Virus record (IMG/VR): IMGVR_UViG_2851955134_000006
Coordinates: 1 to 12,320 of that record
Length of the DNA: 12,320 nucleotides
Origin: a virus
Lineage: Duplodnaviria; Heunggongvirae; Uroviricota; Caudoviricetes
Reading direction: 5' to 3' (one strand)
In this document: positions 1 to 12,320 of the stretch, one piece after another
How positions within the stretch are numbered: position 1 is the first letter of the stretch
How the letters are laid out: each line of letters starts with the position of its first letter
The notes under the pieces: generated by a model
Told to the model about the DNA's origin: nothing
Seen by the model: the letters and a program-made list of their open reading frames with translations, nothing else
The model's database searches: none
Position numbers and translations under genes: made by a program

Positions 1-1230
1 ATGAGCAGAGCACTTAACAAACTGAGCGATACACAGCTAAGGAAAATCAACGGCACACCCGCCCAAAAAACAGTCTTTCTTAATGACGGTGGAAACCTGA
101 CCGTCAGGCATTCAACCAGCGGCCTTTTAACCTGGTATTTCACCTACAGGGCCGGAACGGGAAGGGGAGCACGACCGGAACGGATTAAGCTGGGAAATTA
201 TCCTGATCTGAGCCTGAAAGCAGCCAGGGAAAAAGCCGCACAGTGCCGCGCATGGCTGGCTGAGGGGAAAAATCCACGTCATGAGATGAATTACACCGTA
301 CAGGAAGCGTTAAAGCCTGTAACGGTTGGCGATGCGCTCACCTACTGGCTTGAGTCGTACGCAAAGGAAAACCGTGTGGATTATGACCCACTGAAAAAGC
401 GGCTAAATAATCACGTAATACAGCACATTGGCGCTATGCCGCTGGATAAATGCGAGCTACGGCACTGGCTGGCCTGTTTTGATCGGGTGGCAAAGCAAGC
501 CCCTGTTTCCGCCGGATTCCTGCTACAGACATGCAAACAGGCGCTTAAGTTCTGCCGGAAGCGGCGCTATGCAATCAGCAACGTTCTTGATGATATGAGT
601 GTTGCTGACGTTGGGAAAAAACCGGATATAAGTCAGCGTGTCTTAAGTAACAAAGAACTTGGCGAATTATTGCAGGCACTGGACAAAAAAATATTTTCCC
701 CTTACTACGTCGCACTAATCCGCCTCCTGATTGTCTTCGGAGCCAGGACAGTAGAACTGAGGCTATCGGAGATCGGGGAGTGGGATTTTACCGAAATGCT
801 CTGGACCGTTCCGAAGGAGCACAGCAAAACGAAGGTAGCCATATTCCGGCCCATACCGGAAGCGATACTGCCGTTCGTCACGCAGCTGGTGGAGCAGAAC
901 AGGCACACGGGCTTATTGCTGGGGGAAGTGAAACAGGAGGCCAGCGTATCGCAGTATGGAAGATTAGCGCACAGGAGGCTTAAACACCCTCACTGGTCAC
1001 TGCATGACATCCGGCGCACCTTTACAACGATGCTGAACGATTTAGGCGTGGATCCTCACGTCGTGGAGCAGCTTACAGGCCACCAGATGCCAGGAATGCA
1101 GCGAGTTTATAATCATTCCCGTTATCTGGATGCGAAACGCAATGCGCTGGATATGTGGGTGGAGCGGTTGGAGATACTGGCGGGAGCACATGAAAACGTA
1201 ACCACGCTACCAGTAGCCAGAAGAAAATAA
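1..1230 (+). CDS. int: Site-specific tyrosine integrase, P4-like family
   Basis: 409-aa ORF. N-terminal arm-binding-like region (LSDTQLRK...LNDGGNLTVRH...WYFTYR), C-terminal catalytic region with R..HxxR..Y-type signature (LHDIRRTFTT...GHQMPGMQRVYNHSRY). ATG sits at base 1, so the true start could lie upstream of the window. Confidence 0.9.
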   Translation: MSRALNKLSDTQLRKINGTPAQKTVFLNDGGNLTVRHSTSGLLTWYFTYRAGTGRGARPERIKLGNYPDLSLKAAREKAAQCRAWLAEGKNPRHEMNYTVQEALKPVTVGDALTYWLESYAKENRVDYDPLKKRLNNHVIQHIGAMPLDKCELRHWLACFDRVAKQAPVSAGFLLQTCKQALKFCRKRRYAISNVLDDMSVADVGKKPDISQRVLSNKELGELLQALDKKIFSPYYVALIRLLIVFGARTVELRLSEIGEWDFTEMLWTVPKEHSKTKVAIFRPIPEAILPFVTQLVEQNRHTGLLLGEVKQEASVSQYGRLAHRRLKHPHWSLHDIRRTFTTMLNDLGVDPHVVEQLTGHQMPGMQRVYNHSRYLDAKRNALDMWVERLEILAGAHENVTTLPVARRK

Positions 1231-1604
1231 TTTTTTTCGTGTTTTTTCAGTATGCGCATACTGGATAAGTGCACAGATACAACGGCGAACAATGTGAAAC
1301 AACGTGGAACAACCACGAACAAGAGGCCGAAAAATATACAGATTTATAAGTTGCTGATTTTTAATGCTCAACTGGTTTTTTATACATTAGCGAATAACGC
1401 TTTAAATAGTGAGAAAAAAGGCATGAAACGAGATTTTATGCCTTTGCATAATACTGAATTAAAATGTTTTTTATTAAAATTACCCCGTTTCTGTAAAATA
1501 CCCGCCACCAACATTTGCCAACTCTGAATCACCCTGACACAATCAGACACATACCAACGCAATAGAACACGAAATAACTCTTTAAGAAACGAAAGGGGGC
1601 AATA

Positions 1605-1793
1605 GTGTTAAGCACTGATCGCTTTATACGTGAAAAAGAATGCGAAAAGCTAACAGGCCTTAGCCGCTCATGCCGCTACCGCCTGGAAAAGGCCGGACAA
1701 TTCCCATCACGGCGTAAGCTGGGCGGTCGTTCCGTTGGCTGGTCTTTATCCGAAGTTCTGGCATGGAAGGAAAGCTGCGAGGCAGTTCACTAA
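1605..1793 (+). CDS. alpA: AlpA-family (prophage CP4-57 regulatory protein-like) HTH transcriptional regulator / excisionase-like protein
   Basis: 62-aa ORF with GTG start and SD-like aaggggg 6 nt upstream. Sequence pattern TGLSRS..YRL...GQFP...LGGRSVGW..SEV..W is typical of AlpA/Xis-like MerR-type HTH proteins, and its position directly after int is typical of P4-like islands and Gram-negative PICIs. Confidence 0.8.
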   Translation: MLSTDRFIREKECEKLTGLSRSCRYRLEKAGQFPSRRKLGGRSVGWSLSEVLAWKESCEAVH

Positions 1794-1934
1794 AAAGACT
1801 GGCGGCACACAGCCGCCACCCATCCACTAATACAGAGATTTAACCATGAAGACTGGATATACGCCCGAACAGGGGCGGGGCTTCGTTCGGCCTTGTGAAA
1901 CTGAAAAACAACAAAATCGCGGTTTTTCAGACAT

Positions 1935-1962
1935 AAAAAAAGCGGCCCCGATAAGGAGCCGC
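1935..1962 (-). terminator. Putative rho-independent terminator for the minus-strand two-gene module, possibly bidirectional
   Basis: Stem gcggcccc / ggagccgc (8 bp, one mismatch) with loop gataa, preceded on the plus strand by an A7 run, which reads as a T7 tract after the stem on the minus strand; lies about 160 bp downstream of the minus-strand ORF ending at 2121. Confidence 0.45.
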
Positions 1963-2120
1963 CTTTCTGAACAATTAACCTACTGCGCAAAAAATGAATA
2001 TGAGCAGTGGGATTATATCAACCGTGTGGCGAAGCGCCACAATTGCCGGATAACGGGCAAAGAAAAGGCCACCTGTCACGGTGGCCAATGTGATCAGTGT
2101 CCTGGCTTGCTGGTGGATTG

Positions 2121-2312
2121 TCAGCCAGGTGGGCGGTTTTTGTTTGCTTTTAAGCGCCGAGGGTATTTCTCGACAAAAGGATCAAGGGCGAACTTATCAG
2201 GAACTTTAAGATTTTCAGTGCGGGTTAATGCCTTATTTATTTCCCTGCGGGTTTTCTCACGCTGGCGCATGATAATTGATAATGCTTTATTTTGTAGTTC
2301 CTGGTTATTCAT
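2121..2312 (-). CDS. Hypothetical small basic protein (63 aa)
   Basis: ATG at 2312-2310 on the minus strand with SD aaggtga 7 nt upstream; the ORF track extends it to a GTG at 2321. Lys/Arg-rich (MNNQELQNKALSIIMRQREKTRREINKALTRTENLK...). Sits downstream of the RHH gene on the same strand. No recognisable family. Confidence 0.4.
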   Translation of the reverse strand: MNNQELQNKALSIIMRQREKTRREINKALTRTENLKVPDKFALDPFVEKYPRRLKANKNRPPG

Positions 2313-2369
2313 AATTATCACCTTTAAAACAATGCGCCGCAGTACCTCACACCACGGCGCTGATAGTAA

Positions 2370-2549
2370 TTATTCTGATTCTTTGGCCTTGCGGCGCTGG
2401 CGGCGTTTGATCTCGCCTTTTGCGGCAGTAACTAAAAAACCAGCGGTACTTTCGCCAGGTTCTTTAAGTTGCTCAATATCATCCATTACTTCATGTGGGA
2501 TTCTGACAGTTGTCATTTGTGATTTTGCGTTCTTTGCACCAGTTGCCAT
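2370..2549 (-). CDS. Ribbon-helix-helix (CopG/Arc/MetJ-like) DNA-binding protein, candidate repressor
   Basis: 59-aa ORF starting MATGAKNAKSQMTTVRIPHEVMDDIEQL, an RHH-like N-terminal beta-strand motif (TVRIP.E....IE.L). Strong SD aggaga 7 nt upstream of the ATG on the minus strand. The ORF track's 118-aa version begins at an upstream ATG with no RBS. Confidence 0.6.
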   Translation of the reverse strand: MATGAKNAKSQMTTVRIPHEVMDDIEQLKEPGESTAGFLVTAAKGEIKRRQRRKAKESE

Positions 2550-2610
2550 TTCTGGATCTCCTAAAAATTGGTGTATGTCAGTATACGCAAAAAAAATGAT
2601 AAAAAAAGGC

Positions 2611-2661
2611 TTGAAGTGTATTTCACCAGTGAGTAAATTAAAAAGCAAAGGTGAAATACAC
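2611..2661 (+). promoter_or_regulatory. Divergent control region: candidate rightward sigma70 promoter (TTGAAG -N17- TAAATT) overlapped by a perfect 12-bp inverted repeat operator
   Basis: gtgtatttcacc at 2616-2627 and its exact reverse complement ggtgaaatacac at 2650-2661, separated by 22 bp. The left arm lies in the promoter spacer and the right arm just downstream of the -10. Located between the minus-strand RHH gene and the plus-strand early operon. Confidence 0.45.
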
Positions 2662-2742
2662 CTGAAAGAGCAACGCCCCGCAGTGCTCGCAACACATGCA
2701 GGGCGTCTAACCACCAACGATAGCAAGAGTATCGAGGTAGCT

Positions 2743-2946
2743 ATGAGAAATCATACCACACACCCGCAAGGGCGGGACTCGCACAACCTGAATAAATACA
2801 TCTGGCGTTTTATCGCCCTGAGCACGGCACAACCGCGCGTAATTCACATCGAGGCCACCAGCGAACAGGAAGCACGTCAGCAATCTCCTGATGGCTGCGT
2901 GATGGTATTCGCCGCCCGTATTCGTCAGGAGGTGTGCCATGATTAA
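2743..2946 (+). CDS. Hypothetical protein (67 aa), first gene of the early operon
   Basis: ATG at 2743 with SD gaggt 5 nt upstream. The stop overlaps the next gene's start (ATG 2939, TAA 2944-2946), implying translational coupling. It is the C-terminal part of the long open frame 1846..2946, which is otherwise judged non-coding. Confidence 0.5.
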   Translation: MRNHTTHPQGRDSHNLNKYIWRFIALSTAQPRVIHIEATSEQEARQQSPDGCVMVFAARIRQEVCHD

Positions 2947-3307
2947 CCTGTCACTTACCGATCTTAACCGCGTTCAGTTTCGTGAGAAATTTACCGGACA
3001 GCTACTCGTCAATGTGGAGAACGGGCGCATAGTGCGTAATTATCACCTGCCGGATGGTGCAATTGCCGGAAGCGTTGAAGCATTGCTTGAACTGGCGGAA
3101 CGTGCGCGACTGATTAAGCCGTCAACGAACCATCACGATGATGATCTGCATTTTACCGGATGTATGGTGAGTCACTACGAAAACGGCGTCGAGGTATCCT
3201 GCGAACAGCTACGCACTGATTGCTGTTTTGGCACTCTGCCGGAATTTATCGAATTGCTGACCAGTTGCGGATATCAGGTTATTCAGGGGGTGCGCCATGT
3301 GCAATAA
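2939..3307 (+). CDS. Hypothetical protein (122 aa)
   Basis: Strong SD aggaggtg 4 nt upstream of the ATG; coupled to flanking genes. No recognisable family. Confidence 0.6.
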   Translation: MINLSLTDLNRVQFREKFTGQLLVNVENGRIVRNYHLPDGAIAGSVEALLELAERARLIKPSTNHHDDDLHFTGCMVSHYENGVEVSCEQLRTDCCFGTLPEFIELLTSCGYQVIQGVRHVQ

Positions 3308-3749
3308 CATCCGTCCGGACGCAGCCGCCGCCGCACTCACTACTCTGATGCACGCGCTTATTGATATTTCTGTTATTGCAGACATGGCGCATAAGCACGC
3401 CACCAGAGAGACGGAATATACAGGGGAAATAATCCCCCATTCGCTGGCCTACGCACAGCTTACCGCTGATATGGCACTGAATGAAGCCAAAGCCATCCTG
3501 ATTGCTGATTGTGAAAATGGGGGGGTTATGCGTGATGATCGTTTTAATGCCCTGAAACAGGAATTTTCCGGCGTTCCTGATAATGCGGCTGATGCGCTTT
3601 CGTCAATGCCAGAGCTTATTAGAGCGGCTTTTTTCTTACTTTCCACGAGAGAATATAAATCAACGGGGCTTGATGTACTGAATATCGCCGCCGATTATGC
3701 TGATTTCGTGACAGAGGTTATTTTAAGAAAAACGACGGACGGGGATTAA
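3297..3749 (+). CDS. Hypothetical protein (150 aa)
   Basis: ATG overlaps the upstream gene's end, with SD caggggg upstream. Protein-like composition. No recognisable family. Confidence 0.6.
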   Translation: MCNNIRPDAAAAALTTLMHALIDISVIADMAHKHATRETEYTGEIIPHSLAYAQLTADMALNEAKAILIADCENGGVMRDDRFNALKQEFSGVPDNAADALSSMPELIRAAFFLLSTREYKSTGLDVLNIAADYADFVTEVILRKTTDGD

Positions 3750-3750
3750 T

Positions 3751-3984
3751 ATGCGTGATATTTACCTAGAAACAATAGACCGCGCATTTAGTGCCATTGT
3801 TTACGCTGAAGGTATGTACGAAATATTGCAAATGTATCTGGATACATTTGGCGATAATGAGCGTGATGTAAAGAATGCGCGGATTATTAAATCTCTGATA
3901 ACTCTCCTTGAACCTGTAATAACAGAGTTGCAGGAAATAGACCTATTGCACGACAGATATAAAGAACAGCACACCGGAGAATAA
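3751..3984 (+). CDS. Hypothetical protein (77 aa)
   Basis: Starts 2 nt after the upstream stop, with SD gacgggga upstream. No recognisable family. Confidence 0.55.
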   Translation: MRDIYLETIDRAFSAIVYAEGMYEILQMYLDTFGDNERDVKNARIIKSLITLLEPVITELQEIDLLHDRYKEQHTGE

Positions 3985-3989
3985 AAATA

Positions 3990-4289
3990 ATGAAACTTAA
4001 ATATTCTGGCTTTACTGCCAGCGGCCCCGCTCGGCCTGAAATCCGCCCCGGCGATATTTTCAAAGATAACTACGGCGGCACGGTAACAATTAAAAGCGTG
4101 GAGGAACGTCGCGTAACTTACCGCCGTGATGGCTACGAATATGACTGCGTGATGCCTGTTTATCAGTTCCGGCGTGATTTTTCTCTGGTACAGAACGCAA
4201 CACGCGGTAAGCCCACCAGCAGGGAAAAAGCACGGGAAAATATTAAGAAAATAAAAAGCATGCTCAGCGCATCCAGAGGTAAAAAATGA
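3990..4289 (+). CDS. Hypothetical protein (99 aa), basic C-terminus
   Basis: SD ccggaga upstream; its stop overlaps the start of the replicase gene (ATGA at 4286-4289). Confidence 0.55.
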   Translation: MKLKYSGFTASGPARPEIRPGDIFKDNYGGTVTIKSVEERRVTYRRDGYEYDCVMPVYQFRRDFSLVQNATRGKPTSREKARENIKKIKSMLSASRGKK

Positions 4290-5692
4290 AACTGGCACCG
4301 AACGTAAAACTGTTACCGAAAGATAAACACACTGAGGCGGTTATTTTTGCGGGTGATAATGCTCACTCCTTTGCAGAACATTACATGATTGCACAGGCCA
4401 AAAAAGCAGGCGATCCCATCCCTCCGGTTTACCTGGGCCGTTATCAGTTAAGCGAACTGGACAACTTACAGATTGTTGATGAAGGACGATACAGGGCAAA
4501 GGTCATACGCGCCGGAAACCTGGACGATATGCAGATGCTGACCATTGCCACCAAACTGGCGATCGCAGGTGTCCAGGAAGCACGGTTACTTTCAGAGAAT
4601 TTCGAACTGCTGGAGGACTGGAGCGAGCAACTACCGCGGCTTAAAGAAACCTGGGAACGCGGGGAAAGTCTGGTCATGAATGGTGGAAAGCGAAAAATCA
4701 CACTTCCCATCTCATGGGGTTCTGAGGGATTCGACGCGCAGCAAAGCTACGTAATTAAGGGGCTTATTCCGGCTGAGTCATTATGCAGCACCTACGGGGC
4801 CAGCGGTTCTTATAAATCGTTCCTGGCTATTTCCTGGTCGTGCCATGTTGCCACAGGTATGGCATGGGGAGGCCGCAGGGTAAGTAAGGGCGCTGTTATC
4901 TATATCGCTGGCGAAGGCAGTATGGGCGTAAAACGCCGCGTTAAGGCGTGGGAGATAACCCATGACAAGGTGGTTACAGATTTGTGCATCATTAACGCGC
5001 CGGTATTCCCCGCATCGCCTGACTATGTGGAGCAGGTTATCAGGACTGCCGGACTTGTTAAGAGCAGAACGGGCGAAAATGTGCCGCTGATTGTGATCGA
5101 CACGCTGGCCCGTTGCTTTGGTGGGAATGATGAAAATGATTCCCGTGATATGGGCGCATTTATCCAGGGGTGTGACGCGATAAAGCAGGCTACAGGGGCC
5201 ACGGTGCTGGTGGTTCACCATTCCGGCAAGGATGAAACAAAGGGGGCGCGTGGTTCCAGCGCATTCCGTGCCGCGCTTGATGCAGAGTACCGAATCAGCC
5301 GGGAAAATTCAGACGTTACAGCACTGGTGGCGGCGTGTACGAAGATGAAGGACGCAGAGGAGCCAAAAGAAAGCGCATACGACCTTAAAAGCGTGGAGGT
5401 GTTCACCGATACAGATGGCGAAGAAATTGTGTCTATGGTGGTGATTGACGTTCCCCGCGCCCCTGCTGAACTGGAGCGCATCGAGGAAGCAGGCAACAAA
5501 TCGGAGAATCACGCCGCGCTATGGCAGTGCATCAGAACGCGGACGGCACACAAAGAGCCATGCACTATCGCCCTTCTCCGCGACGATATGAAAAAGCTGG
5601 GGTATGAGATGAAGCACTTCCGGCGCTGGCTGTCCAAGCTGGAAAAAGACGGCGTGATTTGTGTCGATGGGGATGATGTTTACCCACTGTAA
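4286..5692 (+). CDS. Replication initiator ATPase / helicase, RecA-like P-loop NTPase (RepA/AAA_25-like), satellite replicase
   Basis: 468-aa ORF with a P-loop-like segment (LIPAESLCSTYGASGSYKSFLAISW), a Walker B-like hhhhD segment (PLIVIDTLARCFG) and a VVHHSGKDETKG segment typical of RepA/DnaB-type ATPases. Immediately followed by an iteron array. Confidence 0.8.
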   Translation: MKLAPNVKLLPKDKHTEAVIFAGDNAHSFAEHYMIAQAKKAGDPIPPVYLGRYQLSELDNLQIVDEGRYRAKVIRAGNLDDMQMLTIATKLAIAGVQEARLLSENFELLEDWSEQLPRLKETWERGESLVMNGGKRKITLPISWGSEGFDAQQSYVIKGLIPAESLCSTYGASGSYKSFLAISWSCHVATGMAWGGRRVSKGAVIYIAGEGSMGVKRRVKAWEITHDKVVTDLCIINAPVFPASPDYVEQVIRTAGLVKSRTGENVPLIVIDTLARCFGGNDENDSRDMGAFIQGCDAIKQATGATVLVVHHSGKDETKGARGSSAFRAALDAEYRISRENSDVTALVAACTKMKDAEEPKESAYDLKSVEVFTDTDGEEIVSMVVIDVPRAPAELERIEEAGNKSENHAALWQCIRTRTAHKEPCTIALLRDDMKKLGYEMKHFRRWLSKLEKDGVICVDGDDVYPL

Positions 5693-5895
5693 AAAGTGGG
5701 TAGTAAAAGTGGGGAGAGTGGGGAATTTAACAAAATTGAAACATAATTCCCCACTTTCCCACCTGTATACATCCAAAAAAGTGGGGAGCAAAAAACGCAA
5801 TGAAAAACAAAGCATTAGATTCACTCAAAAAACGAAGTGGGGAGCAAGTGGGGAATTTAAAAAGTGGGGAGCAAAAGTGGGGAGTGGTGGGGAAT
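5693..5895. repeat. Iteron array, putative origin of replication of the element
   Basis: At least eight direct copies plus one inverted copy of the core AGTGGGGA, in two flavours (AGTGGGGAGCA and AGTGGGGAATTT), at roughly 5708, 5717, 5780, 5836, 5847, 5863 and 5876, with a variant at 5695 and the inverted copy at 5746-5757. AT-rich spacers. Sits directly downstream of the replicase gene. Confidence 0.7.
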
Positions 5896-5938
5896 GAATA
5901 AAAACCGAACAGCAGGACAAAATACAGAAGGTGAATTT

Positions 5939-6262
5939 ATGAACACTGAAATTGAAACACTGAGCATATCAACTGCCCTTCCTGGCTGGTGGGCTAAGTT
6001 CAAAGACGACGACGGCACGGAATGGTATAGCCCAATTGCTGCATGGGCGCTTTGTGAGATCCACCATTTCGGCACCGGAGATACTTACCGCGAAATCTTA
6101 CCCGTGCTGACCAGTGAGGTGGGCGTGAGTCCGCATAGTCCTGATGAGGGAATGTTCGAGTGCCTTTATCTGCCAGATAAGAAGTTTGTTCACTGCGGTG
6201 AGTCATGGGTATTTGCCTGGTATCCGGTTAACGACAGCAGCAATAGCGGTACTCTGGAGTAA
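5939..6262 (+). CDS. Hypothetical protein (107 aa; alternative start at ATG 5894 gives 122 aa)
   Basis: SD aggtga 4 nt upstream of ATG 5939. The longer ORF-track version starts inside the iteron array and is less likely. Confidence 0.5.
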   Translation: MNTEIETLSISTALPGWWAKFKDDDGTEWYSPIAAWALCEIHHFGTGDTYREILPVLTSEVGVSPHSPDEGMFECLYLPDKKFVHCGESWVFAWYPVNDSSNSGTLE

Positions 6263-6265
6263 ATC

Positions 6266-6508
6266 ATGAAGGTAAACCACAAAAAGACAGATCACCGCGC
6301 CATTGACCTTACAGAGCACTGGCTGAGGGTGGCGATAAAAATCATCGACCGCAACGCGGGAGAAGGATACGCGAAGGAACATCCCGAACTGATTAGCGCA
6401 TTCATGACAACGGCAGCTGCAAACTTTTCCACGCTGACAGAACGGGAGATTGCCGAAGCGCAACAGGTGACAACCATCAACGTTAAAACCAGTGAGGTGG
6501 AATCATGA
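6266..6508 (+). CDS. Hypothetical protein (80 aa)
   Basis: SD ggag 6 nt upstream; its stop overlaps the SSB start (ATGA). Confidence 0.5.
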   Translation: MKVNHKKTDHRAIDLTEHWLRVAIKIIDRNAGEGYAKEHPELISAFMTTAAANFSTLTEREIAEAQQVTTINVKTSEVES

Positions 6509-6915
6509 CAGCACAGATAGCGGCTTACGGGCGGCTGGTGGCTGACCCACAGTTAAAGACCACCAGCAAGGGTACACAAATGGCGATGGCGAGTATGGCT
6601 GTCCCCCTGCCGTGCAGCCAGGCAGATGACGGAACGGCGACGATGTGGTTATCCGTCCTGGCGTTTGGCAGACAGGCCGACGCACTGGCAAAACACCAGA
6701 AAGGCGAACTGGTGAGCGTGGCGGGTAACATGCAGGTGAGCCAGTGGACCGGACAGAACGGGGAAACGCGGCAGGGCTGGCAGGTTATCGCAGACAGCGT
6801 AATCAGTGCGCGGACAGTGCGACCGGGCGGAAAAACACGCAAAACCACAGGCACACAGGGTAATCAGCCACCAGCGGGAGACGATGACCCTTACGGTGAT
6901 GATATTCCGTTCTGA
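6505..6915 (+). CDS. ssb: Single-stranded DNA-binding protein (short, phage/plasmid-type SSB)
   Basis: 136-aa ORF with an OB-fold-like N-terminal region, a Gly/Gln/Pro-rich linker and the hallmark acidic SSB C-terminal tail DDDPYGDDIPF. SD gaggtgg upstream. Confidence 0.8.
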   Translation: MTAQIAAYGRLVADPQLKTTSKGTQMAMASMAVPLPCSQADDGTATMWLSVLAFGRQADALAKHQKGELVSVAGNMQVSQWTGQNGETRQGWQVIADSVISARTVRPGGKTRKTTGTQGNQPPAGDDDPYGDDIPF

Positions 6916-6925
6916 GGGGGTGACG

Positions 6926-7198
6926 ATGGTACATGACCGGATAGCGGAGGAACTGGAGGCGAAAGGATTTTACCGGAGGGCGGCCGCGCGATGGGGTGAA
7001 GTTATGTGGCTGGTGAGCACTGACAAGGAGCGCGAACAGGTGGCAATGCGACGGCTGGAATGTTCCCGGAAGGCACAGAGGCCACCGGAGCCACCGGATG
7101 ATTTAGGCGCTCTGAAAAGGTCAGTTAATCGCACTGAAAAACAAATGGGGATAGCTGGTATTGGCAAAGCAATATGGCGCAACTACCCGCAGAAGTGA
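6926..7198 (+). CDS. PerC-family transcriptional regulator-like protein (90 aa)
   Basis: ATG at 6926 with SD gaggggg upstream. The N-terminal segment MVHDRIAEELEAKGFYRRAAARWGEVMWL matches the PerC/Pch-family pattern (LE.KG.YRRAA.RW) as recalled from memory. The ORF track's longer version overlaps ssb and lacks an RBS. Confidence 0.5.
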   Translation: MVHDRIAEELEAKGFYRRAAARWGEVMWLVSTDKEREQVAMRRLECSRKAQRPPEPPDDLGALKRSVNRTEKQMGIAGIGKAIWRNYPQK

Positions 7199-7205
7199 GC
7201 ACACA

Positions 7206-7227
7206 GCCGGAGCAATCCGGCTTTTTT
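7206..7227 (+). terminator. Rho-independent terminator ending the replication/regulation operon
   Basis: Stem gccgga / tccggc, loop gcaa, then TTTTTT; 8 nt after the PerC-like stop codon. Confidence 0.6.
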
Positions 7228-7233
7228 ACGCCT

Positions 7234-7275
7234 AAAAAAAGCCCGATAAGGTCACAGGGGGCTTATCGGGCTTTT
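7234..7275. terminator. Second hairpin, likely a bidirectional terminator
   Basis: A7 run, then 10-bp perfect stem gcccgataag / cttatcgggc with an 11-nt loop, then tttt; it gives a T7 tract when read on the minus strand. Confidence 0.5.
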
Positions 7276-7354
7276 GCATATGAGGTTTTTTTTGGTGCAC
7301 TGACACACATGAACGGGATAATCATTTCATAATTTGCAACACAACTCAACATCA

Positions 7355-7403
7355 TTGCACAAAATGCAATCATGATTATAATCAGAGCTGGATGAACATC
7401 CAG
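7355..7403 (+). promoter_or_regulatory. Putative sigma70 promoter of the head operon with overlapping dyad symmetries
   Basis: TTGCAC at 7355-7360, a 16-nt spacer, then a consensus TATAAT at 7377-7382. The -10 is embedded in the perfect 12-bp palindrome tgattataatca (7373-7384), and an inverted repeat ctggatg-aa-catccag (7388-7403) sits at the predicted transcription start. Confidence 0.5.
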
Positions 7404-7438
7404 TTATGATTTTTTAAGTCAAAGAGGAATTTCTGACT

Positions 7439-7645
7439 ATGGCAGAAGAGAAAAAAGGCGGGGTGACGGTCTACATAAGCCCCGACATCGTGGAGGCGCT
7501 CAAGGAACGCCACCAGCAGAATGTAAAAGCAGGCATTGCGGCAGGACTTGATCCGCTGGCGATGGTTGAGCCGTCAACAGGCTGGCAGGTGCGCACCTAT
7601 TTACGTGCGGCGCTGGGTATCAATCAGGTTCACGGAGGTGAATAA
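7439..7645 (+). CDS. Hypothetical protein (68 aa), first gene of the head module
   Basis: SD aagaggaa upstream; its stop overlaps the capsid gene start (TAATG). Confidence 0.5.
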   Translation: MAEEKKGGVTVYISPDIVEALKERHQQNVKAGIAAGLDPLAMVEPSTGWQVRTYLRAALGINQVHGGE

Positions 7646-8700
7646 TGACAGGCAAAGCAACGGCACTTACAACTAACCAGCTTTTCGCGTACCTGAATCG
7701 CGGGGATATTGCGGATTTTAAATTCAGCCCTCTGTTTACCACGCTGTTTTTCCCGAACGTGGCGACCTTCAACACCCAAAACATCATGCTGGACACCCTG
7801 GACATTGAAGAGGTTACGATGTCAGCGTTCTGTTCGCCTATGGTGGGTAGTCAGGTCCAGCGCGATAAAGGGTACGAAACCAGCACGATTAAACCCGGCT
7901 ACATGAAGCCAAAGCACGAAATCGATCCAACAAAGACCATCATGCGCATGGCTGGAGAAGATCCGGCACAGCTTAACGATCCAACTTACCGCCGTATGCG
8001 CCTGATTACTGGCAACATGCGCCGCCAGATAAACGCCATTAAGGCGCGCGTGGAATGGCTGGCGGTGAATGCGGTAACGACCGGAAAAAACATCATTGAG
8101 GGCGAAGGCATAGAACGCTATGAAATCGACTGGAAAATACCGGAAAACTGCATCATACAGCAGGCCAGTGGTAAAAAATGGTCCCAGCAGGATAAAGACA
8201 TGCACGACCCAATCTATGACATCGAGCTTTATGCTGATCAGGCAGGTTGCCCCGCCAACGTCATGATTATGGGCGGTGAGGTATGGCGCACATTACGCAG
8301 CTTTAAAAAATTCCGTGAACTGTACGATCTTTCCCGTGGGTCAGAATCCGCCGCCGAGCTGGCCTGTAAAAACCTGGGCGAAGTGGTGAGCTTTAAAGGC
8401 TATCTTGGTGATCTGGCCCTTATCGTCTATTCCGGCAAATACACTGACAGCGACGGCACCGAAAAATATTTCCTTGAGCCTGATTTGCTGGTCCTGGGTA
8501 ACACCAACAATAAAGGGCTGGTGGCCTATGGTGCGATTATGGATCAGGAAGCGGTAAGAACGGGCGCAACGCAAAACATGTACTACCCGAAAAACTGGAT
8601 TGAGGACGGCGATCCGGCGATTGAGTACGTGCAGACGCACAGCGCACCGCAGCCGGTACCGGCAGATATTCGCAAATTTGTTACCGTCAAAATTGCTTAA
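7645..8700 (+). CDS. Major capsid protein, lambda gpE family
   Basis: 351-aa ORF with SD ggaggtg upstream. Blocks of similarity to lambda gpE as recalled from memory: DFKFSPLF..LFF near the N-terminus, PGYMKPKHEIDP (lambda PGYVKPKHEVNP), DPTYRRMRLITGNMR (lambda DPAYRRRRIIMQNMR), and C-terminal YPKNWIEDGDPA...SAP...FVTVKIA (lambda YPKNWVTTGDPA...SAP...FVSVQLA). Confidence 0.9.
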   Translation: MTGKATALTTNQLFAYLNRGDIADFKFSPLFTTLFFPNVATFNTQNIMLDTLDIEEVTMSAFCSPMVGSQVQRDKGYETSTIKPGYMKPKHEIDPTKTIMRMAGEDPAQLNDPTYRRMRLITGNMRRQINAIKARVEWLAVNAVTTGKNIIEGEGIERYEIDWKIPENCIIQQASGKKWSQQDKDMHDPIYDIELYADQAGCPANVMIMGGEVWRTLRSFKKFRELYDLSRGSESAAELACKNLGEVVSFKGYLGDLALIVYSGKYTDSDGTEKYFLEPDLLVLGNTNNKGLVAYGAIMDQEAVRTGATQNMYYPKNWIEDGDPAIEYVQTHSAPQPVPADIRKFVTVKIA

Positions 8701-8711
8701 CGGGGGATTCT

Positions 8712-9047
8712 ATGGACGCTCCATACATTGAGTTATTTTCAGGCAGCCAGCAGGTATCCACGACGCTGGTACATTTTGCCGCTGATGCTGGCGTTATTCA
8801 GGAATTTACCCCTCTGATGCTGGCAGACAATGGCGAGTTTAAGGCGTGGGATGGTCAGGAATCTGGCAAAGCTGTTTATCTGACTTCGCACCCCGTGGAC
8901 ACGTCAAAGCAGAAATCAGCACAGTGTTACAAAACGGGGATATTCAATATTGCCGCCGTTAACTGGCCTGATAGCGTCGACACCGATGCGAAAAAATGCG
9001 CCGCCTTTGCGGGTTCCGGCGTATCCGTTCAGCCGCTGGCCCGATAA
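8712..9047 (+). CDS. Head decoration protein, lambda gpD family
   Basis: 111-aa ORF with SD cggggga upstream. Similarity to lambda gpD as recalled from memory: TPLMLADNGEFKAWDG (lambda TPLMLDTSSRKLVAWDG), YKTGIF (lambda YKSGTF), and C-terminal KKCAAFAGSGVSV (lambda KKRTAFAGTAISIV). Confidence 0.8.
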   Translation: MDAPYIELFSGSQQVSTTLVHFAADAGVIQEFTPLMLADNGEFKAWDGQESGKAVYLTSHPVDTSKQKSAQCYKTGIFNIAAVNWPDSVDTDAKKCAAFAGSGVSVQPLAR

Positions 9048-9059
9048 GCAGGGGGAACG

Positions 9060-9473
9060 ATGGCAACGAATGAAAGTATCATGACGCTACCGCTGGCGAG
9101 TAAATTTAAAGCCGAAGCGCGGGCAATGGCTGACAGAGGTTTATCAACCTACGAGGCCATACACCGACTAAACAAACTGGAAGAACAGGACAAGCCGCGC
9201 GCTGATGCGATTATGGCGCTTCATGAATCTGACGACTACCAGCCGCTGTTACGTGCAATGGCTAACGTGCCTTGTATCGATGTTGGTACGGCTAAAAGCA
9301 TCCTTAGCATGACCATAGAGCAGGAACGCCCGAAGGTTGCACCAGAGCTTACTTCAGCCTTTGAAAACTTTATGGACATGCACAGCCCGAAAGCCGTATC
9401 AGCTGGCATGGCATACGATGGCAGAACCCCGGGCGATGACGGCGACATCGATCGCATACTGAAAACCATCTGA
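9060..9473 (+). CDS. Hypothetical protein (137 aa), last gene of the head module
   Basis: SD agggggaa upstream; followed 7 nt later by a terminator. No recognisable family. Confidence 0.55.
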   Translation: MATNESIMTLPLASKFKAEARAMADRGLSTYEAIHRLNKLEEQDKPRADAIMALHESDDYQPLLRAMANVPCIDVGTAKSILSMTIEQERPKVAPELTSAFENFMDMHSPKAVSAGMAYDGRTPGDDGDIDRILKTI

Positions 9474-9479
9474 GACAAG

Positions 9480-9502
9480 GCCGGAGAAATCCGGCTTTTT
9501 TT
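9480..9502 (+). terminator. Rho-independent terminator ending the head operon
   Basis: Stem gccgga / tccggc, loop gaaa, then TTTTTTT. Nearly identical to the terminator at 7206-7227. Confidence 0.65.
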
Positions 9503-9507
9503 GCGGG

Positions 9508-9575
9508 TCCTTTCCGGCATGTGGACCCGTTACGGGGCGTCGACCTCGCGCGTTTTCGCTATTTATGACGTTTTT
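9508..9575 (+). other. Lambda-like cohesive-end site (cos-1: cosQ-like flank, cosN, start of cosB)
   Basis: CGTTACGGGGCGTCGACCTCGCGCGTTTTCGCTATTTATGACGTTTTTCCG closely matches the lambda cos region as recalled (…GGGCGGCGACCTCGCGGGTTTTCGCTATTTATGAAAATTTTCCGG…). The predicted 12-nt cohesive end GGGCGTCGACCT (9535-9546) differs from lambda GGGCGGCGACCT at one position. Located about 90 bp upstream of a Nu1-like gene on the same strand. Confidence 0.75.
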
Positions 9576-9635
9576 CCGTGAAGGTGACACCACCACCACT
9601 TGATTAACATTTAATCGCATGATTAAGGTAACATT

Positions 9636-10076
9636 ATGATTGATAAAGCTTGTTTTGTGAGTCAGCAGGAAATAGCAGAACATTTCAAGGTCAACAGAAC
9701 CACTATTCGCGCATGGACCAAACAGGGCATGCCATATCTTGATGCGGATCGCGGAAAGTCCGGCGGTTATCACATCGGACACACATTATTCTGGTGCATG
9801 GGTAAAAGCCATCTTGATGCTATTGAGTACCACGGAGAAACCAGCGCACTGGAAAAGATTATGGTTGCCAGGTTGATTGCGTCAGAGCGCGACGAGTATT
9901 TCAGTGAAGAAACAGAACAGCGATTTGATGAAGGTTTGCATATTTACGGCTATTCACCGGAAGATGTGAGCAAGGCACGAAATAAAATGGCTGGCTTTCT
10001 GGCTGGGTGGCGTCATGCCGTAAGCGTTCGCCGTGCCAGCATGGAACAATCAGTCGTTACAGAACAGCAAAGTTAA
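9636..10076 (+). CDS. Nu1-like terminase small subunit homolog (N-terminal winged HTH); candidate packaging-redirection (Rpp-like) protein
   Basis: 146-aa ORF. N-terminus FVSQQEIAEHFKVNRTTIRAWTKQGMPYLDADRGKSGG resembles lambda Nu1 (QLADIFGASIRTIQNWQEQGMPVLRGGGKG, recalled from memory). The C-terminal region is shorter and unrelated to the Nu1 gpA-binding region. No large terminase gene follows. Confidence 0.7.
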   Translation: MIDKACFVSQQEIAEHFKVNRTTIRAWTKQGMPYLDADRGKSGGYHIGHTLFWCMGKSHLDAIEYHGETSALEKIMVARLIASERDEYFSEETEQRFDEGLHIYGYSPEDVSKARNKMAGFLAGWRHAVSVRRASMEQSVVTEQQS

Positions 10077-10079
10077 AAA

Positions 10080-10260
10080 TCACTTTCTGTTACGCCATCA
10101 AATACGCAATACAACAACCACGTATTTTTTTAAAACTATTTGATTCAATTAGCATTTTTTTATTTTTAGCATCAAAAAAACACTATCAGGTTGTTGTATT
10201 GCTCTTTATTTTTACTTAGTTATCAAATGGATATGACAAACAATTAAACAACAACCTCCC
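10080..10260. repeat. AT-rich region with a 14-bp perfect inverted repeat and short direct repeats
   Basis: gcaatacaacaacc at 10106-10119 and its reverse complement ggttgttgtattgc at 10189-10202 (69 bp apart), a third partial copy aacaacaacc at 10247-10256, and direct repeats of ttagcat in a T-rich context between the arms. Confidence 0.45.
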
Positions 10261-10272
10261 TCTAAAAAAGCT

Positions 10273-10345
10273 CATAAATAGCGAAAAACCGCGAGGTCGA
10301 CGCCCCGTAACGGGCCATAATTCCAGGAAGGACCCGACGACACCA
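10273..10345 (-). other. Second lambda-like cos site (cos-2), inverted relative to cos-1
   Basis: The reverse complement of 10273-10345 reads ggtgtcgtcgggtccttcctggaattatggCCCGTTACGGGGCGTCGACCTCGCGgtttttcgctatttatga. A 25-bp core is identical to cos-1, with flanking similarity on both sides (gggtcctttccgg versus gggtccttcctgg; cgttttcgctatttatga versus gtttttcgctatttatga). Cohesive-end equivalent at 10294-10305. Confidence 0.7.
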
Positions 10346-10369
10346 GACTATCAGAGCGATGGGCGCACA

Positions 10370-10651
10370 ATGACAGAAGCCGAACTACTGGGATTAATCC
10401 GCCGCGTTACCGGAATCAGCCAGCAGCATGACGAACAGGCCACGCAGCCGGACAGCGTGACCGCCGAAAATTACGCGTGTGTTGTTGCTGAGGTGATGCG
10501 CCGTGATGGTATTGAGCTTAACGGCGTGGATATGCGCAACATACGAACCAGAGTCCTTGAGTTGCTGGCATACCGTCGCCGTTCTCAACAACGGAGGGAG
10601 AGCGCGAAAAATACTTACCAGTGGAAGAAGCCGGAACGACTGCGTACGTAA
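10370..10651 (+). CDS. Hypothetical protein (93 aa)
   Basis: ORF with a weak SD; followed about 70 bp later by a plus-strand hairpin with a T tract. Arg-rich C-terminus. No recognisable family. Confidence 0.4.
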   Translation: MTEAELLGLIRRVTGISQQHDEQATQPDSVTAENYACVVAEVMRRDGIELNGVDMRNIRTRVLELLAYRRRSQQRRESAKNTYQWKKPERLRT

Positions 10652-10721
10652 TACGTACGGACATCGAGATAAAGACGGTTTAACCATCCATTAAAAATCG
10701 ACGTGATTTTGTGCTTTCCGG

Positions 10722-10745
10722 ATGACGTGGCCAACGTCATTTTTT
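10722..10745 (+). terminator. Putative rho-independent terminator
   Basis: Stem atgacgt / acgtcat, loop ggcca, followed by ttttt. Confidence 0.5.
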
Positions 10746-10967
10746 AGCGAAAAATTCTGATTAAGGTCATTGGCTGAATGGTCATAATGACCACTCCTAC
10801 AGAACAGGTAAAGCCCACCAGCCTGATTAAAGGTTAACCGGAAAAAAAGCCAGGTATCAATCTCGATATGTGGATCCCCATATCGACAGCAACGCCCCCT
10901 TAAAATTACCCGCCTTTATATTTCTTGTGCCTATTTGTTCCACGTTGTTTCATACAGTGCACCGATC

Positions 10968-10991
10968 GGTGTAGTTAATGGTGTAGTTAAT
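10968..10991. repeat. Perfect tandem duplication of a 12-bp unit (ggtgtagttaat x2), preceded by the palindrome accgatcggt
   Basis: Read directly: 10968-10979 and 10980-10991 are identical; the palindrome is at 10961-10970. Confidence 0.6.
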
Positions 10992-11084
10992 TTGCGATTT
11001 TTGGCACTTTTTTTAGTGTAAGTTGTTTAATTAAATCAATACGTTATTGAAAATAAGTTATAGATATATCCCATTTATGACTCC

Positions 11085-12320
11085 TTATTTCTGCCAGGCA
11101 AGTTGATAAAGCATGAGTGCCAACGTTTTGACCCCTTCGGCAAGGTCGGTAATATTGGTGCGTTCCGCCGGGTTATGGCTGATCCCATTGATGCTGGGAA
11201 TGAAAATCATGCAGGTTGGTACGCGAGGCGCGAAAATTTGCGCGTCGTGCCCGGCACCACTGTGCATCACCCGGTAATTCAGTTTTTCGCTTTCACACAA
11301 TTCTGTCAGGGTGGCGACCAGGTCCTTATTCATCGGCACGGGTTCTTCGTCCATCCATAAATCGATATCAATACCAATGTCCATTTCATCGCAAATCGCC
11401 CGCATGTCGTTTTCTAACTGCTGAGTGAAATCGCGCAGCACGGCGGCGTCGGTATGACGACAATCAATGGTGAATGTGGTTTTACCCGGCACCACATTCA
11501 CCGTATTCGGGCGCGGCTCCACCTTACCAAAGGTCAGCACCAGCGGGTCGCCCATCTTTTTCGCTTTTTCGATCGACTGATGGCAAATGCGACTGAAAGC
11601 GTAAACTGTATCACGACGGTAACCCATCGGCGTGGTGCCTGCATGGTTTGATTCGCCGTTCAGCGTCACCGTATAGCGACGTTGCCCGACAATTGCATTC
11701 ACCACGCCAATTGATTGCCCATTACTTTCCAGCACACAGCCCTGTTCGATATGCAGTTCGACAAAGGCTTTAATATCCTGACGCGGAGTTAGCGGGGCGT
11801 CCGGCAGAGTAAATCCGCAAGCCTTCATCGCATCGACAAAACTATTTCCTTTGGCATCACAGATATTCCGCACGTCGTCAGGATTCGCCAGCCCAAAGAT
11901 ATTTTTACTGCCCCAGAAAACATACGGGAAGCGGCTGCCTTCTTCTTCCGCCATCGCCACCACTTCAACCGTACGTAACGGCGCGCCGTATTGCCTTTTC
12001 AACCAGTCAATTGCCAGCCACGCCGCCAGCGCGCCGAATTGCCCGTCGAGGTTACCGCCGTTAACCACGGTATCGATATGCGAACCGCTCAGAACCACTT
12101 CCTGTGGATATTCGGTGCCACTCAGGCGACCGTATAAATTCCCCACTTCATCGAAACGTGTTTCCAGCCCGCTTGCTGCCATTCTTTTTTTAAATTGCTG
12201 CTGGGTTTCCAGCCATTCCGGCGAATAAAGTAAACGGGTCATCCCACCCGTTGGGTCAGCGCCAAAAGAGGAAAGCCAGGGCAGCGTTTCTTCTATGGCT
12301 TGACGGAAATGTGTAATCAT
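11085..12320 (-). CDS. allC: Allantoate amidohydrolase (M20 peptidase / hydantoinase-carbamoylase family), host chromosomal gene
   Basis: Complete 411-aa ORF with ATG at 12320-12318. M20-type metal-binding motifs (SGSHIDTV, DGQFG, EEEGSRF, HNPAE). Full-length match to my recollection of enterobacterial AllC (MITHFRQAIEETLPWLSSFGADP...). Confidence 0.8.
   Translation of the reverse strand: MITHFRQAIEETLPWLSSFGADPTGGMTRLLYSPEWLETQQQFKKRMAASGLETRFDEVGNLYGRLSGTEYPQEVVLSGSHIDTVVNGGNLDGQFGALAAWLAIDWLKRQYGAPLRTVEVVAMAEEEGSRFPYVFWGSKNIFGLANPDDVRNICDAKGNSFVDAMKACGFTLPDAPLTPRQDIKAFVELHIEQGCVLESNGQSIGVVNAIVGQRRYTVTLNGESNHAGTTPMGYRRDTVYAFSRICHQSIEKAKKMGDPLVLTFGKVEPRPNTVNVVPGKTTFTIDCRHTDAAVLRDFTQQLENDMRAICDEMDIGIDIDLWMDEEPVPMNKDLVATLTELCESEKLNYRVMHSGAGHDAQIFAPRVPTCMIFIPSINGISHNPAERTNITDLAEGVKTLALMLYQLAWQK

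Follow-up and report, generated by a model that had tools for sequence, protein, structure and literature searches.

A four-gene operon for lambda-type capsid and decoration proteins and a predicted Nu3-like scaffold in a satellite element of the EcCICFT073 family

The DNA considered here, hereafter the window, is the complete 12,320-nucleotide stretch of IMG/VR virus record IMGVR_UViG_2851955134_000006 (positions 1 to 12,320; Duplodnaviria; Heunggongvirae; Uroviricota; Caudoviricetes). These 12.3 kb take in nearly all of a small integrative element, which runs from left to right along the + strand and has the gene content of a Gram-negative phage-inducible chromosomal island (PICI) of the EcCICFT073 family. 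Our focus is the interval 7439-9473, which holds a single operon of four intact genes encoding, in order, a 68-aa leader protein (orf68), a 351-aa major capsid protein of the lambda gpE family, a 111-aa head decoration protein of the lambda gpD family and a 137-aa protein (orf137) that we identify as a truncated Nu3-type scaffold. A first-pass annotation of this DNA had recognized the capsid and decoration genes, both of which stand, but had counted two genes where there are four.

The same four genes, of 68, 351, 111 and 137 aa, occur in the same order and with the same spacing in EcCICFT073, where they are designated c1498 to c1501 and encode proteins that are 92.6, 95.7, 93.7 and 93.4% identical, respectively, to those of the window. 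For the capsid pair, the ratio of nonsynonymous to synonymous substitution rates (dN/dS) is 0.08. The likeness extends beyond the operon, as both elements continue with cos1, rpp, an inverted cos2 and a 93-aa gene (75.3% identity between the two products). The elements differ in chromosomal location, with that of the window lying at allE/allC and EcCICFT073 beside phoQ, and in replicon, with a RepA/AAA_25 helicase in the window as opposed to a primase in EcCICFT073. The products of c1499 and c1500 have been described as a putative capsid protein and a head decoration protein (Fillol-Salom et al. 2018, ISME J, PMC6092414), and 21 of the 29 Gram-negative PICIs in a reference set carry a major capsid gene, which helper-assisted transfer does not require (PMC10111431). 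The capsid/decoration cassette itself is therefore already known, and the suggestion in the first-pass annotation that it represents an unrecognized strategy cannot be maintained. Our additions, described below, are modest and concern the derivation of c1501-type proteins from Nu3, the coupling of the leader gene and the conservation of the operator, none of which is stated in the published accounts that we examined.

Assignment of the 351-aa protein to the gpE family was borne out at several levels of comparison. Specifically, it matches Pfam Phage_cap_E (PF03864) with an E value of 2.5e-50 (bit score 171.8, cut-off 22.9; positions 14-328 of the 329-position profile aligned) and the major head protein family PHROG 29 with one of 7e-109, and it aligns with lambda gpE over its full length (43% identity over 343 aa, E 3e-93). 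The solved lambda capsid chains 7vi9 and 7sj5 were matched with E values of 3e-81 and 3e-79, and PDB entry 3BQW ('putative capsid protein of prophage') was matched over the full length at 2.3e-230; this entry is the crystal structure of an ortholog of the window capsid protein and displays the HK97-type fold. The 111-aa protein is similarly recognized by Pfam HDPD (PF02924; 2.2e-17; bit score 63.7, cut-off 29.1; positions 9-112 of the 116-position profile aligned) and by PHROG 49, head decoration, at 3e-27. Pairwise, it is 36% identical to lambda gpD, with its N-terminal 31 residues remaining unaligned, and 41-43% identical to helper-type D proteins over residues 32-105. We also encountered a protein, P0070, from a 463-aa gene call on a 3.2 kb assembly contig in which the PF03864 and PF02924 domains are fused; the fusion may have arisen as an artefact of sequencing or of a frameshift, or it may be natural and fit the capsid-then-decoration order.

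The last gene of the operon points to a third head-assembly function. By its sequence, orf137 is a truncated Nu3-type scaffolding protein, and the earlier statement that the element carries no scaffold gene is therefore incorrect in part. It matches PHROG 1999 and, at 9.6e-8, the C-terminus of PHROG 53, the head maturation protease (C/Nu3 fusion). The only match in tblastn searches was to the 3′ end of C/Nu3 in PhiR12-type lambdoid phages, the part encoding the protein C-terminus, and pairwise alignment with the PhiR12-type C/Nu3 protein gave an E value of 4e-10, with 36% identity across 83 aa. When 1.84 billion representatives were searched exhaustively with phmmer, we recovered P0100, a 195-aa Nu3-type scaffold that matches scaffold and capsid-assembly PHROGs and also the orf137 family, PHROG 1999, at 1e-41; the alignment spans all of orf137 and takes in the last two Nu3 repeats and the FxxFMxxHSP tail. 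The two sequence hallmarks of Nu3-type proteins, namely repeats of the form IMxLxEAxGxExxAxxLAxxPGMxxxxAxxIL followed by a C-terminal FExFMxxHSPxxV tail, are thus both found in orf137. With respect to gene context the match breaks down, since Nu3 proteins are encoded in frame inside the S49 protease gene C and measure ~200 aa at full length, whereas orf137 is free-standing after the decoration gene in an element that has no S49 protease.

The Nu3 relationship was visible only through the PhiR12-type phages, the PHROG profiles and the exhaustive phmmer search. BLASTP gave nothing significant between orf137 and lambda C/Nu3 or FI, tblastn gave no match to the C gene of the CFT073 helper, a word-indexed homolog search returned close E. 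coli relatives only, and no Pfam or NCBIfam model matched. Some members of the family have been named 'phage head-tail connector protein' by the NCBI annotation pipeline. The AlphaFold model of orf137 is all-helical and of low confidence (pLDDT 60). The decoration gene is also followed by a homolog with 30% identity in another, diverged lineage of E. coli PICIs, with 64% identity between its capsid protein and that of the window. In lineages with a capsid protein ~55% identical, the gene after the decoration gene encodes a second AlpA-like protein of 114-117 aa, which takes the place of the Nu3-like protein (L007, 11403-11756; L010 and L011, 11402-11746).

At the other end of the operon, the stop codon of orf68 overlaps the capsid start codon (TAATG), an arrangement that predicts translational coupling of the two genes. 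This overlap is kept by homologs of orf68, 48-58% identical, in PICIs of Salmonella and Edwardsiella, and orf68 itself matches PHROG 3255, a family of unassigned function, at 8.7e-36. Its AlphaFold model (pLDDT 75) comprises a beta-hairpin and two helices; Foldseek found no PDB match with E <1, and a PDB sequence search was likewise empty. It is our conjecture that orf68 could be a ribbon-helix-helix regulator, which would fit the palindromic operator upstream.

In terms of transcriptional organization, the first-pass annotation had proposed a cassette running from its own promoter to its own terminator. The terminators are clear (Table 1): the upstream pair comprises a hairpin returned by a terminator scan and a perfect 14-nt inverted repeat (7237-7250/7262-7275), and the hairpin that closes the cassette folds at -17.4 kcal/mol (z-score -2.4). 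The first hairpin after the PerC gene and the one after orf137 are near-identical, GCCGGAG(C/A)AATCCGGCTTTTTT, which would fit insertion of the cassette through duplication or reuse of a terminator. The promoter was not flagged in a sigma-70 consensus scan, because its -35 element matches at only 3 of 6 positions, and it is instead placed by conservation. Specifically, nucleotide conservation between genera across 7320-7438 exceeds that of the downstream proteins, and the promoter block is kept across E. coli, Salmonella and Edwardsiella PICIs even though the encoded proteins are only 46-71% identical. We infer from this that 7355-7382 functions as a promoter, which also fits the discrete transcription unit apparent in CFT073 RNA-seq. 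The upstream conservation suggests a dedicated regulator, for which orf68 and the adjacent PerC protein are candidates; PerC, usually treated as a virulence accessory gene, could serve here as the regulator of the operon. At the predicted 5′ end of the transcript, the hairpin is kept in Salmonella with a loop change and may act in RNA stability or attenuation.

Data for the EcCICFT073 ortholog indicate that the operon is transcribed without helper induction. On a shift of CFT073 from 23 to 37 °C, transcripts of c1498, c1499, c1500 and c1501 rose by 2.24, 2.05, 1.45 and 1.17 log2 units, respectively, with no significant change for the primase, SSB, rpp and c1505 genes (PMC12890032 supplement). 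The four genes therefore rise jointly where their flanks do not, as expected of one transcription unit. The PerC ortholog rose by 1.9 log2 units at 37 °C in the same data, a change that was not significant. Two ideas regarding this regulation were rejected. The cassette promoter does not appear to mimic the Q-dependent late promoter of a helper, as comparison with lambda pR' and the CFT073 helper post-Q region returned only a chance 12-mer, and an RNA thermometer in the 5′ untranslated region as the cause of the rise at 37 °C is unsupported, with a fold z-score of just -1.9. Silencing of the AT-rich promoter by H-NS might instead account for that rise.

Table 1. Features of the window, in order of position
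Feature	Position	Strand	Remarks
Tyrosine integrase	1-1230	+	Arm-DNA-bind_3 and Phage_integrase
AlpA	1605-1793	+	PF05930, 5e-18
RepA/AAA_25 helicase	4286-5692	+	AAA_25, 2.5e-42; PHROG 2850, 4e-185
AAAAGTGGGGAG iterons	5690-5903		directly after the RepA-type helicase gene
SSB	6505-6915	+	
PerC-family regulator	6929-7198		directly 5′ of the capsid operon
Two intrinsic-terminator hairpins	7205-7222 and 7237-7275	+	after the PerC gene; upstream boundary of the cassette
Putative promoter/operator	7334-7382	+	-35 TTGCAC 7355-7360, 16-nt spacer, -10 TATAAT 7377-7382
Additional TTGCAA half-site	7335-7340	+	
Palindrome ATTGCAcaaaaTGCAAT	7354-7370	+	over the -35 element
Conserved 8-bp hairpin and U-run	7386-7415	+	at the predicted transcript start, before the ribosome-binding site
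Ribosome-binding site AAGAGGAA	7422-7429	+	
orf68, 68-aa leader protein	7439-7645	+	ortholog of EcCICFT073 c1498
Major capsid protein, lambda gpE family, 351 aa	7645-8700	+	ortholog of EcCICFT073 c1499
Head decoration protein, lambda gpD family, 111 aa	8712-9047	+	ortholog of EcCICFT073 c1500
orf137, truncated Nu3-type scaffolding protein, 137 aa	9060-9473	+	ortholog of EcCICFT073 c1501
Intrinsic terminator closing the cassette	9479-9502	+	GGCCGGA-GAAA-TCCGGC, then T7
cos1, lambda-like cosQ/cosN	9504-9575	+	packaging site outside the capsid operon
Rpp (redirecting phage packaging), 146 aa	9636-10076	+	PDB 6hlk (RppC) match, E 1.7e-32
cos2, inverted relative to cos1	10265-10336	-	cosN-like site 10294-10305, minus strand
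attR core CGGTGTAGTTAATGGTGTAGTTAATT	10967-10992	+	right end of the ~11.0 kb element; allC on the opposite strand beyond

The evolutionary record of the capsid and decoration proteins is that of an old, satellite-specific lineage under purifying selection. Among satellites of E. coli, Salmonella, Edwardsiella and Serratia, capsid proteins share 53-96% identity, as compared to only 38-48% with phage E proteins, which are 59-95% identical among each other. Among 50,697 phage genomes, no record reached 60% identity to the capsid protein of the window; the best stood at 47%, which argues against recent capture of the gene from a helper. Capsid and decoration identities diverge in step and define a satellite-only clade. 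Gene order is always leader-capsid-decoration, and the resulting E-D-(Nu3-like) arrangement reverses the Nu3-D-E order of phages. Together, the reversed order and the satellite-only clade indicate that the cassette is not a deletion remnant of a lambdoid prophage, in agreement with the first-pass annotation. With respect to selection, six diverged E. coli copies, in which all four genes are intact and of equal length, gave dN/dS values of 0.06-0.15 for the capsid gene (dS up to 0.29), 0.05-0.22 for the decoration gene and typically ~0.25 for orf137.

The cassette is also widespread and mobile. Of 5,426 complete E. coli genomes, 596 (~11%) have it in intact form, and the capsid-decoration pair is found in PICIs of Salmonella, Edwardsiella, Serratia and other E. 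coli lineages. Copies with 91-94% nucleotide identity (L012, L013, L014, L004 and L001) are paired with either Rpp or a 180-aa Nu1-type small terminase, with a helicase or a primase replicon, and with at least four integration sites (allC, phoQ, yejO and mdtJ). These varied replication, packaging and attachment partners indicate that the cassette moves as a module among satellites. In Edwardsiella tarda (L006, 1786-11394), a related satellite lies inside the portal gene of a lambdoid prophage, with portal fragments at 765-1625 and 11908-12681, and thus exemplifies the helper-embedded arrangement known from the literature. The capsid protein of the Edwardsiella satellite is only 46% identical to the E protein of its own helper, as compared to 64-71% for other satellites. 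An identical satellite capsid protein, P0069, is encoded both in a chromosomal PICI and in a PICI inserted in helper capsid gene E.

The surrounding element has the features by which Gram-negative PICIs are recognized. An integrase gene at the left end reads inward and is followed by alpA, and the element brings its own replication initiator with iterons just downstream. At ~11.0 kb it falls within the 10-15 kb range, it occupies an att-bounded chromosomal site, and it is devoid of a phage structural and lysis gene set. A cos site and an rpp gene, whose activity is predicted from sequence, are present as well. On these testable features, we assign the element to the EcCICFT073 family of Gram-negative PICIs. 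Induction, replication and high-frequency transfer by a helper phage have been shown experimentally for EcCICFT073 only (PMC6092414), and the corresponding behavior of the window element is predicted from module proteins that are 88-96% identical. E. coli LH50-c carries the same element with allE on one side and allC on the other, bounded by 26-nt att cores whose attL and attR copies form a direct repeat spaced 11,420 bp. Portal, protease, large terminase, tail and lysis families had no match among the other open reading frames of the window in Pfam and PHROG scans, and beyond the att cores of LH50-c we found only chromosomal allantoin-pathway genes. The purely chromosomal flanks imply that portal, protease and terminase genes are not concealed beyond the window. 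The first-pass description of a satellite without these functions accordingly holds in the window and in the LH50-c flanks alike, and portal or large terminase genes of the same element just outside, which it had named in advance as a finding that would overturn its view, did not appear.

Directly downstream of the operon lies the packaging region. A cosN-like sequence, GGGCGTCGACCT, is located within cos1 at 9535-9546 with one mismatch to the lambda cohesive end, and the cos1 region falls in a 93%-identical block common to the window and EcCICFT073, in which the functional cos1 sits upstream of rpp (PMC6739421, PMC9026076). The gene between the two cos sites had been read as Nu1 in the first-pass annotation. 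It is instead rpp: in addition to the RppC match, its product is 87.7% identical to EcCICFT073 RppA (c1503), and its match to TerS families is weak and confined to the helix-turn-helix region. Rpp binds helper TerS and redirects the terminase to the island cos, such that phage-length DNA is packaged (PMC6739421, PMC9026076, PMC10111431). In the window, rpp is bracketed by a 72-nt inverted repeat whose arms are 85% complementary and each contain a lambda-like cosN (GGGCGTCGACCT), so that cos1 and cos2 face each other across the gene. EcCICFT073 is likewise reported to have cos1 and cos2, with cos1 alone needed for transfer; the 93-aa gene follows cos2.

The element was also compared with characterized systems. 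In lambda, Nu3, D and E belong to the same three families as the window proteins, although identity to those of any phage is only 34-48%, and the window Nu3-like protein differs from that of lambda in having neither a protease fusion partner nor the first repeat; portal, protease, W, FI and FII are absent. Satellite P4 resembles the window element in encoding a capsid decoration protein (Psu) and a scaffold-type protein (Sid) that act on helper assembly. The P4 proteins, however, act on the P2 capsid protein to give T=4 heads, and P4 has no capsid protein of its own. Psu and Sid have no sequence relationship to gpD or Nu3, the Sid, Psu, delta and alpha primase families were absent from the window in Pfam and PHROG scans, and Rfam gave no matches to P4-like immunity RNAs, including C4 and isrK, which sets the element apart from P4-like satellites.

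Two classes of PICI also bear comparison. The capsid-forming PICIs (cf-PICIs), such as EcCIEDL933, share the int-alpA-rep backbone and encode their own capsid protein (cf-PICI preprint). Their gene set further includes protease, portal, head-tail connectors, HNH, TerS and TerL, which leaves only tails to be obtained from the helper (cf-PICI preprint); the absence of portal, protease, connectors, TerL and HNH from the window and its flanks places the present element outside this class. Helper-embedded PICIs (11capE, Eco567.11capE; PMC10111431) share both the backbone and the capsid-then-decoration pair, and we found relatives inside helper E and B genes. The window element is chromosomal, unlike 11capE, which resides in a helper late gene, and its capsid protein is ~55% identical to those of the 11capE lineage.

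Published experiments on EcCICFT073 bear directly on what the cassette does. Deletion of c1499 or c1500 left both transfer by the resident helper and interference with lambda unchanged (PMC6092414), and when a size-neutral marker was put in place of c1499, transfer was higher, not lower (PMC6092414). Islands in which c1498-c1501 had been replaced by cas9 or melA were still packaged and were transduced by phi80 (PMC10530653, PMC10460865). In a lambda/EcCICFT073 lysogen, all packaged DNA was phage-sized (PMC6092414). When genes downstream of ori were cloned singly in pBAD18, only c1503 (rpp) blocked lambda, and deletion of c1503 restored lambda plaques almost fully. The EcCICFT073 data thus establish that, under laboratory conditions, neither transfer nor interference with lambda depends on the cassette. 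We found no newer work settling the function of c1499 and c1500 in the literature searched.

Taken together, these observations lead us to favor, tentatively and accepting that it may well prove wrong, a reading in which the cassette is an accessory shell module that is conditionally useful and is not the packaging route of the satellite. Packaging itself would proceed via Rpp, with helper terminase directed to the satellite cos and concatemers of about four copies filling normal helper heads. The cassette proteins would be assembly-competent shell parts that, during the helper lytic cycle, join or add to heads nucleated on the helper portal and protease. The mini-Nu3 protein may serve the diverged capsid protein of the satellite as its cognate scaffold or adaptor, with the decoration protein cementing the shell, which should be phage-sized. 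A benefit would arise where the capsid protein of the helper is in short supply, incompatible or interrupted (the last as in the helper-embedded relatives), or with helpers beyond those assayed. Several points weigh against this proposal. The silent deletions, the still-packaged replacement islands and the attribution of lambda blockage to rpp supply no role for the shell proteins in the systems assayed, and no experiment has placed cassette proteins in a particle. Moreover, transcription at 37 °C in cells that have not been induced sits oddly with a role confined to late morphogenesis, and the RNA-seq table (PMC12890032 supplement) has no protein-level values for c1498-c1501. With the capsid protein only 43-48% identical to helper capsid proteins, co-assembly with helper parts is also not assured.

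The first-pass annotation had put forward a different role, in which shell and cementing proteins are assembled on the helper portal, scaffold and protease into small capsids that accommodate one ~11 kb genome and exclude the helper. There are precedents for such a strategy. SaPIbov5 resembles the window element in having no portal, protease or TerL, in being cos-packaged and in encoding a homolog of the helper capsid protein (Ccm) (PMC6092414, PMC6893505), and PmCI172, a PICI of Pasteurella multocida, likewise has a major capsid homolog without a full head module (PMC6092414). The module is also conserved along with a scaffold-like protein of its own, and the size of packaged DNA was assessed with lambda as the sole helper. 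The precedents nonetheless differ from the EcCICFT073 family in their outcome. Ccm makes small capsids and blocks the helper, and PmCI172 forms 37-39 nm heads with PICI-sized DNA on a Mu-like myovirus helper (PMC6092414, PMC6893505), whereas the DNA of EcCICFT073 packaged with lambda is all phage-sized and loss of its capsid gene is without effect or, with the marker swap, raises transfer (PMC6092414). In addition, the Ccm family is unrelated in sequence to the window capsid protein, SaPIbov5 has no gpD-like or Nu3-like partner, and the small heads of PmCI172 have not been traced to any particular gene. Interference with lambda is fully accounted for by Rpp. The size problem that satellite-made shells were meant to solve also disappears, since four ~11.0 kb copies fit a lambda head (PMC10111431), amounting to ~44 kb or ~91% of lambda's length. 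We therefore consider small-capsid formation, which the published data contradict for lambda and phi80 as helpers, improbable. Interference without resizing, in which proteins already present in the uninduced lysogen mis-template, cap or sequester the capsid assembly of superinfecting or competing lambdoid phages or of rival satellites and do not build heads for the satellite itself, is unlikely in our view, yet a good deal harder to dismiss. It would account for transcription without induction and for a rise at 37 °C that is separate from the replication and rpp genes, as well as for a dedicated promoter with a near-consensus -10 element and a conserved palindromic operator; the authors of the EcCICFT073 work refer to the region as the island's 'adaptable module', and a scaffold fragment without its protease and N-terminal part is the kind of protein that could be dominant negative. 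Set against this, singly cloned genes other than rpp left lambda plaques unreduced, rpp deletion restored lambda almost fully, and deletion of c1499 or c1500 gave no relief of interference. As those tests covered lambda, phi80 and HK97 only, with genes taken one at a time, they weaken the idea and do no more.

That every published test is without phenotype could also mean that the cassette is a functionless late-gene fragment, captured and persisting by hitch-hiking, and PICI late zones have been described as dynamic and as sites where helper late genes are captured (PMC10111431). Such an origin is very hard to square with strong purifying selection and intact, equal-length copies throughout, with the recurrence of the same pair in the same order in at least four genera at 53-71% capsid identity, with a best phage homolog at only 47%, and with a promoter kept between genera, so that we give it little credence. 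Of all the readings considered here, we find least probable that the capsid gene is a backup for a helper gene broken by integration, left over in chromosomal elements. This idea was raised in PMC10111431 and gains from the identical P0069 capsid in chromosomal and E-embedded PICIs and from the Edwardsiella relative in a helper portal gene. The window element, however, sits at allE/allC and not in a prophage, the cassette is also found at phoQ, yejO and mdtJ, and an interrupted helper gene is restored on excision. The decoration, leader and Nu3-like genes, and the presence of a capsid gene in an element that interrupts a portal gene, would be left unexplained, and the redundancy is not essential according to PMC10111431. 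A further reading, which we regard as distinctly unlikely, is that the operon is a self-sufficient shell-forming system working outside the tested lambda/phi80 route. With particular natural helpers, shells specific to the satellite, perhaps with T <7, may be built on a stolen portal; in a second version, the operon may produce portal-less shells or decoy capsomers directed at incoming phages, or fill a cellular role, a form proposed because the operon is transcribed in uninduced cells at 37 °C. Either version, if true, would account for the retention, in most Gram-negative PICIs, of a capsid gene that has not been needed in any laboratory assay.

Regardless of which reading is correct, a puzzle is posed by a capsid module that is under strong purifying selection across genera and carried intact by ~11% of complete E. 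coli genomes, yet is silent in all published deletions. The mini-scaffold, the coupled leader gene, the cross-genus promoter and operator, and transcription without helper induction sharpen this puzzle. Its solution would reveal either a new way in which satellites exploit the assembly machinery of helpers or a role for a capsid module outside the virion.

Elsewhere in the window, the region 5690-5903 carries at least four AAAAGTGGGGAG iterons along with nested inverted repeats and is likely the replication origin of the element. The left part also contains small genes with no assigned function, among them one for a DUF4222 protein. The longest open reading frame there (1846-2946, 366 aa) is probably spurious, as only its last ~90 residues match PHROG 6196, a transcriptional repressor family. 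In the LH50-c annotation, this region has a short Icd-like gene, and two small genes (2121-2321 and 2370-2726) lie on the opposite strand.

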